Shown here in pieces: positions 8,289-30,508 of a stretch of 64,000 nucleotides of DNA (its first letter is position 1; the number at the start of each line of letters is the position of its first letter). Location of the stretch: the sequence record PZ386947.1. The stretch is one strand, 5' to 3'. Source of the DNA: a phage. A program made the translations under genes and the position numbers. The notes under the pieces are model-generated. The model saw nothing but the letters and a program-made list of their open reading frames with translations. It was not told where the DNA came from and did no database searches.

Positions 8289-9876
<1,588 letters not shown>

Positions 9877-9904
9877 AATAAAATGGGCCTTGCGGCCCAC
9901 TCCT
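9877..9904 (-). promoter_or_regulatory. structured translation-initiation region of denA
   Basis: AAGGAG immediately after nrdB stop, then hairpin GGGCC-GCAA-GGCCC, then AUUUUAUU AUG; hairpin sits between Shine-Dalgarno and start codon. Confidence 0.45.
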
Positions 9905-11082
9905 TAAAAGTATTTTTTAAAACTCATCATAACTTTATCATCAACATCATTATCAATCTGTGCAACAAGATAAGATGACAGTTCTACTTCTTGTGGCGCT
10001 GATTGAACATTATCAGAATTAAGATATTCACGAATCCAAGGATATGGATGTTTAACCGGAGCATCGGTAATTGGGCATGGAAGACCACACTGTTTCATAC
10101 GAGATACAGTTAAGTAATCAATAAAGCTCCACATGCTATTTGTATTTAATCCAGGAACATCGCCATCTTTAAATAAATGAACTGCCCAATCTTTTTCTTG
10201 GCGGTTAACTTCCATGAAAATATCAACTGCTTCTTGTTCACACTCTTTGGCAATTTTAACCCATTCATCACCATCAGTGCCAAGTTGAAGTTGACGAATA
10301 ATATATTGTGTACCTTTAAGATGAAGCTGCTCATCACGTGCAATGAACTTCATAATCTTGGCATTACCTTCCATGATTTCCATATTCTTGTGGAAGTTAA
10401 AGGTACATGCAAAAGATACATAAAAACGAATAGCTTCCAATGCGTTGATTACGTGCAGGCAGAGGTAAAGAGAGCGCATTAGTTCACGTTTCCAATACAT
10501 TTCATGCTCTATGGCATCTTCAATAACGTCTTCGTCTGCATTAATTTCTTTTTGGTATTCGATATCAGCTTTAGCGTTTTCCCAATAACGAGTTTTAATC
10601 AGAACATCATCATAATAACGTCCAATGGATTCAGCACGTTTCATAATAGCTTCATCTAATACAATTTCATCAAATACTTTCGATGGATCAGTATAAAGAT
10701 TTCGCATGATATGTGTATATGAACGGCTGTGAATAGTTTCACTAAAAGTCCACGTAGCAACCCATGTATCAAGGCTTGGGTCTGAAATTAATGACATAAG
10801 TACAGCAGACGGCGCACGACCCTGAATGCTATCCAAAAGTGATTGATACTTCAGGTTATTAGTAAAAATATTTTGCTGATACTGAGGAAGCTTATTAAAT
10901 TGCGCAGCATCCATCATTAAGTTTACTTCTTCAGGACGCCAGAAAAATGACAACTGCTTTTCGGTTAAATCTTCAAAAACTTTATGACGTTGAATATCAT
11001 AACGCGCAATACCAAGACCTGAACCAAAAAACATAGGTTCTTTTAAAACATCAACTGGATTTGTATTAAAAACTGTGCTCAT
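9904..11082 (-). CDS. nrdB: ribonucleotide reductase small subunit
   Basis: 392 aa, continuous ORF with no intron interruption; length close to T4 NrdB; adjacent to nrdA. Confidence 0.9.
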   Translation of the reverse strand: MSTVFNTNPVDVLKEPMFFGSGLGIARYDIQRHKVFEDLTEKQLSFFWRPEEVNLMMDAAQFNKLPQYQQNIFTNNLKYQSLLDSIQGRAPSAVLMSLISDPSLDTWVATWTFSETIHSRSYTHIMRNLYTDPSKVFDEIVLDEAIMKRAESIGRYYDDVLIKTRYWENAKADIEYQKEINADEDVIEDAIEHEMYWKRELMRSLYLCLHVINALEAIRFYVSFACTFNFHKNMEIMEGNAKIMKFIARDEQLHLKGTQYIIRQLQLGTDGDEWVKIAKECEQEAVDIFMEVNRQEKDWAVHLFKDGDVPGLNTNSMWSFIDYLTVSRMKQCGLPCPITDAPVKHPYPWIREYLNSDNVQSAPQEVELSSYLVAQIDNDVDDKVMMSFKKYF

Positions 11083-11133
11083 AAATTTTCCACTTAGTTA
11101 ATAGATAGTGACTCGTCCATGAGTCAAATTATA

Positions 11134-29692: not shown

Positions 29693-29698
29693 CAACAA

Positions 29699-29716
29699 GG
29701 GGGAAATGCCCCCTTT
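29699..29716 (+). promoter_or_regulatory. intergenic hairpin between genes 37 and 38
   Basis: GGGGG-AAATG-CCCCC stem-loop plus TTT, directly upstream of GGAG Shine-Dalgarno of gene 38. Confidence 0.45.
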
Positions 29717-29728
29717 GGAGTATAAATT

Positions 29729-30508
29729 ATGGCAGTAGTTGGAGTTCCTGGCTGGATTGGAAGTTCAGCCGTAAATGAAACGGGTCAGCGCTGGATGAGT
29801 CAAGCAGCTGGTCAATTAAGATTGGGTGTTCCTTGCTGGATGAGTCAATTTGCAGGTCGCTCAAGAGAAATTATTCATACACTTGGAGCAGACCATAACT
29901 TCAATGGTCAATGGTTCCGAGATAGATGTTTTGAGGCAGGTAGTACACCTATAGTGTTTAATATCACTGGAGATTTAGTATCATATTCTAAAGATGTTCC
30001 TTTATTCTTCATGTATGGAGATACACCGAATGAATATGTTCAGTTGAATATACACGGCGTAGCGATGTATGGCCGTGGCGGTAATGGCGGTAGCAATAGT
30101 CCTGGTTCAGCTGGCGGTCATTGTATTCAAAACGATATTGGTGGGAGACTAAGAATTAATAATGGCGGAGCTATTGCTGGAGGTGGCGGCGGCGGAGGCG
30201 GCGGCAACAGGGGTAGACTATCCTTTGGCGGCGGAGGCGGTCGTCCATTTGGCGCTGGTGGGTCTTCCTCTCATATGAGTGCTGGTGCAACCTCCGGCAC
30301 TATTTACGCTCCGGGTGCAGGATCTGTCGGTGAGGGGTCTCTTAGTGCATATACAGGCGGGAATGGCGGTGAAGTTGGCTCCGCAGGAGGTAGATGTAAT
30401 ACTCACGGTACCGGTACAGAATATGACGGCGGTGCTGCTGGTTATGCCGTCATAGGGTCTACGCCGACATGGCAAAACGTTGGAGCAATATATGGTCCAA
30501 GAGTATAA
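29729..30508 (+). CDS. 38: gp38 receptor-binding adhesin (T2-type, glycine-rich)
   Basis: 259 aa with multiple poly-Gly stretches ([24 protein letters not shown]) separating short variable segments; follows gene 37. Confidence 0.8.

Follow-up and report, generated by a model that had tools for sequence, protein, structure and literature searches.

How does the ribosome find the start codon of a gene whose only strong Shine-Dalgarno (SD) sequence lies far outside the normal reach of that codon? The question is raised by denA, the gene for endonuclease II, in the 64-kb stretch of the T4-type phage sequence record PZ386947.1 that is analysed here as a whole (hereafter, the window). On the minus strand, from which the junction is read throughout, nrdB, encoding the small subunit of ribonucleotide reductase, is followed by denA and then by rnlA, and the boundary between the first two genes reads AAA UAC UUU UAA GGAG U GGGCC GCAA GGCCC A UUUUAUU AUG AAA GAA. 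The nrdB stop codon thus merges with an SD sequence, AAGGAG, after which come a GC-rich hairpin, a short A/U-rich spacer and the start of denA. The 1-kb stretch around this junction is 100% identical to the corresponding region of Shigella phage CM8 and 97.6% identical to that of T4. A sequence-only reading of this DNA had described the same succession of stop codon, SD, hairpin and AUG and likened it to the split ribosome-binding site (RBS) of T4 gene 38. The layout holds, coordinates included, on the minus-strand readout, and the linear spacing is indeed too long for an SD; the approximate figure of 24 nucleotides (nt) given for it is, by exact count, 23 nt. We argue that the nrdB–denA junction is probably a gene-38-type, hairpin-bridged (split) RBS, a reading to which, on sequence evidence, we assign a probability of about 0.6.

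Strength and spacing of the Shine-Dalgarno sequence upstream of denA

The predicted duplex between AAGGAG and the anti-SD at the 3' end of 16S rRNA has an energy of -7.9 to -8.7 kcal/mol, and this is the only strong SD sequence upstream of denA, 22-23 nt away. The best site at a normal distance, GCAAGGC, reaches only -3.0 kcal/mol and has its GG locked in the hairpin stem. Counted from the last G of the SD to the A of the AUG, the distance is 23 nt, beyond the roughly 15 nt taken here as the upper bound for a linear site; with the 16-nt hairpin subtracted, 7 nt are left. If the GG of the SD serves as the reference point instead, the two distances become 25 nt in the linear RNA and 9 nt after folding. 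Among 35 genes with a recognisable SD in approximately the first 30 kb of the window, the GG-to-AUG distance ranges from 4 to 14 nt, with a mode of 8, so that in the linear form denA falls far outside the range, whereas in the folded form it is central in it. Nearly all annotated genes of the first 40 kb have an SD 2-12 nt from the start, and denA alone among them has a weak SD nearby together with a strong one at a distance. The start coordinates used in this survey are those of CM8 (sequence L059), which are reliable to about 30.5 kb and offset by 3 nt beyond that point; the ungapped comparison of the window with CM8 over 40,030 nt contains 6,998 mismatches, and the two sequences are thus distinct despite their identity around denA.

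The arrangement is also singular within the window at large. We scanned both strands of the whole window for an SD core located 0-4 nt before a GC-rich hairpin that is followed, after 4-10 nt, by an ATG opening an open reading frame (ORF) of at least 50 amino acids. Among 267 hairpins of the given type, denA was the sole site to match. Six other hairpin-preceded genes that were checked all show the order hairpin, own SD, AUG. One of these is gene 38 of the window itself, which is of the T2/T6 adhesin type (about 260 amino acids) and has a leader (29693-29731, plus strand) consisting of the hairpin GGGGG-AAAU-GCCCCC, the SD UUGGAGU, 7 nt and the AUG. Given this conventional order, the split RBS of T4 gene 38 is absent from the window, although denA appears to use that very design.

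Folding predictions, which the sequence-only reading had proposed as a check, indicate that the hairpin is stable: its core pairs form with a probability of 0.99-1.0 in a 240-nt context, and the hairpin alone has an energy of -10.0 kcal/mol with 5 base pairs (bp) or -11.6 kcal/mol with 6 bp. For the 66-nt region, the predicted folding energy is -18 kcal/mol (z = -3.04), and 4 of 200 shuffled sequences are equally stable. In a search of the Rfam cis-regulatory families, there was no match at the gathering score; the sole hit, L20_leader (24.7 bits against the required 58.7, E = 0.023), was treated as a chance similarity and rejected as an identity for the element.

With no more than 7 nt between stem and AUG, a denA promoter has no room there, and any RNA that encodes denA always includes the hairpin.

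Conservation of the junction among T4-like phages

From annotated phage genomes and from IMG/VR contigs identified with a DenA profile, we gathered 23 distinct nrdB–denA junctions of the hairpin type. The named sources are phages of the Tequatro-, Mosig-, Dhaka-, Gelderland-, Winkler-, Gapriver-, Kanagawa-, Karam-, Marfa- and Moon-type along with Klebsiella and Serratia phages, about a dozen T4-like genera, and the remaining junctions come from the IMG/VR contigs. All 23 nrdB stop codons are UAA, and in all 23 junctions a purine-rich AGG or GAG stands right behind the stop (UAAGGA in most), kept while the adjacent positions have diverged. The stem is G/C-rich and varies in length from 4 to 7 bp; the loop is mostly UUCG, with GCAA or GUAA in the T4 lineage, UUUG and UUAG elsewhere, and CUUGA in one case. 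The spacer that leads to the AUG is 6-10 nt long, U-rich and devoid of an SD.

The two arms of the stem change in concert, the pairs including GGGCC/GGCCC, GGGAC/GUCCC, GGGGC/GCCCC, GGGAGAC/GUCUCCC, AAGGGC/GCCCUU and UAGGGC/GCCCUA. In the MAFFT alignment of the junctions, 89.4% of the cells are paired, compared to at most 69.7% when the arms are slid out of register, and 21 cells carry a change on both sides, against 7.0±2.3 in shuffled alignments (none of 500 reached 21). Four stem pairs covary in this alignment, and the same 6-bp helix, again with 4 covarying pairs, emerges independently from RNAalifold. The junction with the 5-nt loop (L041) is out of register in the MAFFT alignment, which lowers these counts rather than inflating them. 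To judge from folding and covariation, the hairpin is a real structure that is kept by selection.

The arrangement has a limited phylogenetic span. In the distant T4-like phages of the Krisch-, Tulane- and Slopekvirus groups, nrdB is not located upstream of denA, and the arrangement is lacking; hence, the feature is restricted to the Tevenvirinae-type nrdB–denA junction. In three Krischvirus-type sequences (L014, around positions 350-400, L056 and L058), another gene, with the stop UAAUAAGGUGG, precedes denA, and the denA leader consists of the hairpin GGCGGGA-GAAA-UCCCGCC, then UUUGUUGU, a normal SD, GAGGAAAGGA, and the AUG, in a terminator-then-SD layout.

Features of the nrdB–denA junction and hairpin-preceded genes compared with it (window coordinates)
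Feature	Position	Strand	Remarks
nrdB, ribonucleotide reductase small subunit	9904..11082	-	392 amino acids, intronless; from the ORF list and the annotation of CM8, T4 and relatives
nrdB stop UAA	9904..9906	-	contributes to the SD; UAAGGAG can pair with CUCCUUA at the 3' end of 16S rRNA
SD AAGGAG	9900..9905	-	overlaps the nrdB stop; 23 nt linear to AUG
In-frame GUG	9898..9900	-	24 nt 5' of the denA AUG; probably unused
Hairpin U-GGGCC-GCAA-GGCCC-A	9884..9899	-	16 nt, 6 bp, GNRA tetraloop
Hairpin stem	9899-9894 with 9889-9884	-	five G-C pairs and a closing U-A
GCAA loop	9890-9893	-	GNRA tetraloop
Internal AAGG	9888..9891	-	weak alternative SD; AA in loop, GG paired; 11 nt from AUG
Spacer UUUUAUU	9877..9883	-	without SD; U-tract if the hairpin terminates transcription
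denA, endonuclease II, GIY-YIG	9466..9876	-	136 amino acids; AUG 9876-9874
Genes with hairpin followed by own SD	upstream of 1203, 17338, 36168, 38821, 39052; gene 38 at 29729		

The other parts of the nrd region in the window differ from the T4 counterparts in that both mobE and the nrdB intron are missing. The nrdA-nrdB spacer (11083-11133, minus strand) is only 51 nt long and contains a terminator-like hairpin, UGACUC-AUGGAC-GAGUCA (11126-11109); the SD of nrdB itself is weak (AGUGGAA, -3.3 kcal/mol).

Known initiation sites and competing explanations

In T4 genes 38 and 25, a hairpin restores the spacing between SD and AUG, and mutations that destabilise it cut initiation; according to the published figures, the spacing shrinks from 22 to 5 nt in gene 38 and from 27 to 11 nt in gene 25 (PMC3014915). 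Our own counts differ from these by 1-2 nt, and a single counting rule was applied to all three sites. Both sites were read from the T4 record KJ477684, in which the gene 38 junction is GCA UAA GGAG AGGGGC UUCG GCCCCU UCUAAAU AUG. As in denA, the UAA of the upstream gene (gene 37) lies within UAAGGAG, the SD is immediately followed by a 16-nt GC-rich tetraloop hairpin, and a 7-nt A/U-rich spacer precedes the start; under the common rule, the geometry of the two sites is the same, with 23 nt reduced to 7 nt, or 25 to 9 when measured from the GG. In sequence, too, the gene 38 site has close counterparts in the denA junctions of Karam- and Marfa-type phages. The loops differ, UUCG in T4 gene 38 and GCAA, of the GNRA class, in denA of the window, and the genes are unrelated: denA encodes an early nuclease and follows nrdB, whereas gene 38 is a late tail-fibre assembly gene that follows gene 37. 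Furthermore, gene 38 is backed by mutational evidence (PMC3014915), whereas denA is known here from its sequence. With a strong but distant SD, 7 nt left after folding, the geometry of gene 38 and compensatory changes in the stem, denA shows most of what would be expected in the sequence of the gene-38-like split RBS that the sequence-only reading had suggested.

The gene 25 site, at the gene 26-25 junction (Nivinskas and Malys), shares less with denA. There, a hairpin stands between the SD, AAGAGG, and the AUG, with 27 nt in the linear form and about 9-11 nt in the folded form, and the site is kept in close T-even phages and not in distant T4-like ones (PMC3014915), the same pattern as in denA. 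However, gene 25 has an A/U-rich stem of about -8 kcal/mol (CUCAAAG/CUUUGAG) that does not resemble a terminator, whereas that of denA is G/C-rich, is capped by a stable tetraloop and is followed by a U-run. In the kind of stem and loop, denA resembles the intercistronic C(UUCG)G and GNRA hairpins of T4-type phages, which act as terminators or RNA-stability elements. The intercistronic hairpins of the window (upstream of 1203, 36168, 38821 and 39052) each have a separate SD between them and the next AUG; in denA, the SD lies on the 5' side of the hairpin, and the stem ends just 7 nt before the AUG. A further point of comparison is translational coupling through overlap of stop and start codons (ATGA, TAATG), which is found in two relatives (L046 and L055) and in denA of Aeromonas T4-like phages. 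No such overlap exists at the nrdB–denA junction of the window, where 27 nt and a stable hairpin stand between the UAA and the AUG. What the two arrangements have in common is that, with an SD overlapping the nrdB stop, terminating ribosomes would be delivered to the SD.

Several observations weigh against the split RBS. The free-RNA model shows not only the core hairpin but also weak A-U and G-U extensions through which both the SD and the AUG are partly paired. The G-rich 5' arm of the stem is itself SD-like, which makes the assignment of the SD harder in some relatives. The distance from stop to AUG has a standard deviation of 1.17 in the linear form and 1.65 with the hairpin excised; linear spacing is at least as conserved as excised spacing, so that the spacing data do not discriminate between the models, and the argument that excised spacing is the more conserved one was dropped. 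In the T4 lineage, the AAGG inside the hairpin, 11 nt from the AUG, could serve as an SD if the hairpin melts. Two GenBank records, those of fPS-2 and PhiKpNIH-6, label the hairpin 'terminator'. Finally, in L046 (IMGVR_UViG_2974786931_000001) and L055 (IMGVR_UViG_2974770551_000001), in each case around position 600, there is neither a hairpin nor an SD, and denA starts in an overlap with the nrdB stop, AUGA in the former and UAAUG in the latter. From these two overlaps, coupling alone can express denA. The N-terminus of DenA in L046 is the same as in L041, which keeps the hairpin. Given that denA also overlaps the preceding gene in the Aeromonas T4-like phages, ribosomes arriving from the upstream gene can suffice, and translational coupling to nrdB may contribute to denA expression.

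The strongest competitor is that the hairpin is mainly an intrinsic (Rho-independent) terminator, or a stabiliser of the 3' end of the nrdB RNA, and that AAGGAG is incidental to denA initiation; a low level of DenA would then be made from read-through RNA, either via termination-reinitiation coupling or via SD-independent initiation on the A/U-rich leader. We consider this unlikely, although it has substance. The GC-rich stem followed by UUUUAUU yields a score of +24.7 for the window with the 6-bp stem, as in T4, and -4.9 with the 5-bp stem, under a d'Aubenton-Carafa-style scheme that we computed with modern energy parameters, so that the zero threshold is only approximate. The GenBank labels point the same way, as do the relatives with stop/start overlap only, the Krischvirus hairpin that stands before a normal SD in a plain terminator layout, and the weak terminator that was experimentally demonstrated in the same nrd region, inside mobE (PMC2790892). 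Across 18 junctions of relatives, however, the score runs from -43 to +22.9 and is positive in only 6 (Winkler-type, Marfa-type, L024, L045, Moon-type and L048), whereas the 12 negative ones, among them those of the Mosig type (-43), L050 (-38), Kanagawa (-30.5), Karam (-12.6) and the Klebsiella phage, have nonetheless retained hairpin, upstream AGG and short spacer. Terminator character is thus unevenly kept, which suggests that something other than termination is conserved. Moreover, the AGG or GAG behind the stop persists next to diverged neighbours, and no lineage has gained an SD between stem and AUG, where the other hairpin-preceded genes of the window that were checked have theirs. A terminator scan of the window did not list the denA hairpin, perhaps because a G-T-extended stem consumes the T-run, which would make this outcome uninformative; a search of the literature found no mapped terminator after nrdB, although older T4 literature may mention one. 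Termination does not rule out a split RBS, and the two could coexist. For the T4-like phages proper, a second role of the hairpin in partial termination is probable and would be compatible with the split RBS, but it cannot be the feature that is conserved across genera.

Another possibility is that the hairpin is inhibitory, that is, it keeps the SD apart from the AUG and buries the nearer AAGG, holding a toxic nuclease at a low level, with initiation occurring only upon transient melting, for example by ribosomes that terminate at nrdB, and using the AAGG at 11 nt. Endonuclease II degrades DNA, and low expression would be plausible. The sequence-only reading did not mention the AAGG; the original T4 record, X04140, lists two candidate RBSs before denA, the AGGA at the stop and the AAGG in the loop and 3' arm. 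The distance of the latter from the AUG is usable, its GG is fully paired (unpaired probability 0.0), and the minimum free energy structure, as already noted, also engages part of the SD and the AUG, all as such inhibition would have it. Nevertheless, inhibition appears improbable, more so than the terminator. The AAGG is weak, at -3.0 kcal/mol, and occurs only where the loop is of the GNRA class, in the T4 lineage of Tequatrovirus-type phages; the lineages with UUCG, UUUG and UUAG loops have neither an AAGG nor an SD in the spacer. The objection that a nearer SD exists therefore fails across the group, and the AAGG, weak, paired in its GG and confined to the GNRA-loop lineages, is not the conserved initiation signal, although in the T4 lineage it may contribute when the hairpin is open. 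In addition, the near-identical element of gene 38 enhances initiation (PMC3014915).

It is also conceivable, but barely so, that denA starts at the in-frame GUG, in which case the protein would have 144 amino acids and the hairpin would be coding sequence. The ORF is open from this codon, KJ477684 annotates denA from it, and WG01 is annotated from an AUG at the same position. We rejected this start as unconserved, broken in frame in relatives and devoid of SD spacing. The GUG begins on the final base of the SD, and a start at position -24 generally sits 0-2 nt after the SD; such a start is in frame in only 4 of 19 lineages, being put out of frame by junctions of 26, 28 or 32 nt and replaced by in-frame stops in two lineages. 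The changes in the stem are compensatory rather than codon-patterned, and both X04140 and the crystallised construct (PDB 2WSH, MKEI after the tag) use the 136-amino-acid form. The annotation of denA is erratic: of four records, KJ477684 (L001), KU878968 (L005), MN395284 (L011) and LT614807 (L012), two start the gene from the GTG or ATG at -24, one (PhiKpNIH-6) truncates it to a 45-amino-acid ORF and one (Pet-CM3-4) lacks it. Apparently, denA is mis-started, truncated or omitted because no SD adjoins its true start.

The SD upstream of denA also contains GGAG (9900-9903, minus strand), the core motif of sites for the T4 endoribonuclease RegB. This enzyme requires a single-stranded stretch of about 11 nt from GGA onwards (PMC1702504). 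In the window, the stable hairpin begins 1 nt after GGAG; relatives have GGAC, GGAA or GGAU at this position.

Putative mechanism, similar junctions and implications

Under the split-RBS reading, the 30S subunit would pair with UAAGGAG at the nrdB stop while the GC-rich tetraloop hairpin of 16 nt remains intact and is looped out, such that the AUG is presented at the normal spacing of 7 nt from the SD. Since the SD overlaps the nrdB stop, terminating ribosomes might be recaptured, with the refolding hairpin positioning the AUG. In the T4-like phages proper, the hairpin together with UUUUAUU may halt a fraction of the transcripts, which would lower the dose of the nuclease relative to that of nrdB. 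It seems probable that in the T4 lineage the split RBS also acts in this manner as a partial terminator and receives ribosomes that have just finished nrdB.

Similar junctions are found well beyond denA. A scan of IMG/VR for TAAGGA followed, after 0-3 nt, by GGGSCUUCGGSCCC and, after another 5-10 nt, by ATG produced 76 loci (L062-L137). The ATG opens ORFs of at least 54 amino acids from many unrelated families besides denA, including a tail protein (phrog_394), a DNA polymerase (phrog_17), phrog_407 and proteins of 92, 64-67, 256 and 776 amino acids. In one of the loci (L102), the gene is of the gp38-type, for tail-fibre assembly, and follows an ORF of 1080 codons. In four sequence groups, no real ORF follows the ATG. 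As a control, we sampled IMG/VR without the SD requirement, for GGGGCUUCGGCCCC followed by 5-10 nt and ATG, which gave 114 distinct cases (L138-L256). Of 56 cases followed by a genuine ORF, 21 have an SD core immediately 5' of the stem, compared to 4 of the 49 that lack such an ORF (Fisher p = 0.0005), where the cases fall into families and are not phylogenetically independent, so that the enrichment is only suggestive. Tentatively, a UAA/SD overlap, a GC-rich tetraloop hairpin, 5-10 nt and an AUG might constitute a general, possibly exchangeable junction module of phages that joins partial termination or RNA stabilisation with SD delivery. If so, gene callers would systematically mis-start or miss such genes, as is already the case with denA.

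A search of the literature found no description of the denA initiation region, nor any reporter-fusion or toeprinting results for it, although older T4 literature may mention the region. Only T4 genes 38 and 25 are cited as cases in which a hairpin between SD and AUG enhances initiation (PMC3014915), and denA would be the third. In practical terms, automatic annotation errs on denA in several GenBank records in which no SD is adjacent to the start. Covariation over about a dozen genera, combined with the geometry of gene 38, makes the nrdB–denA junctions a natural set on which to study how the 30S subunit copes with a folded insert that lies between its P site and the SD helix. More generally, the denA hairpin provides an example of how a single hairpin could serve termination as well as initiation.

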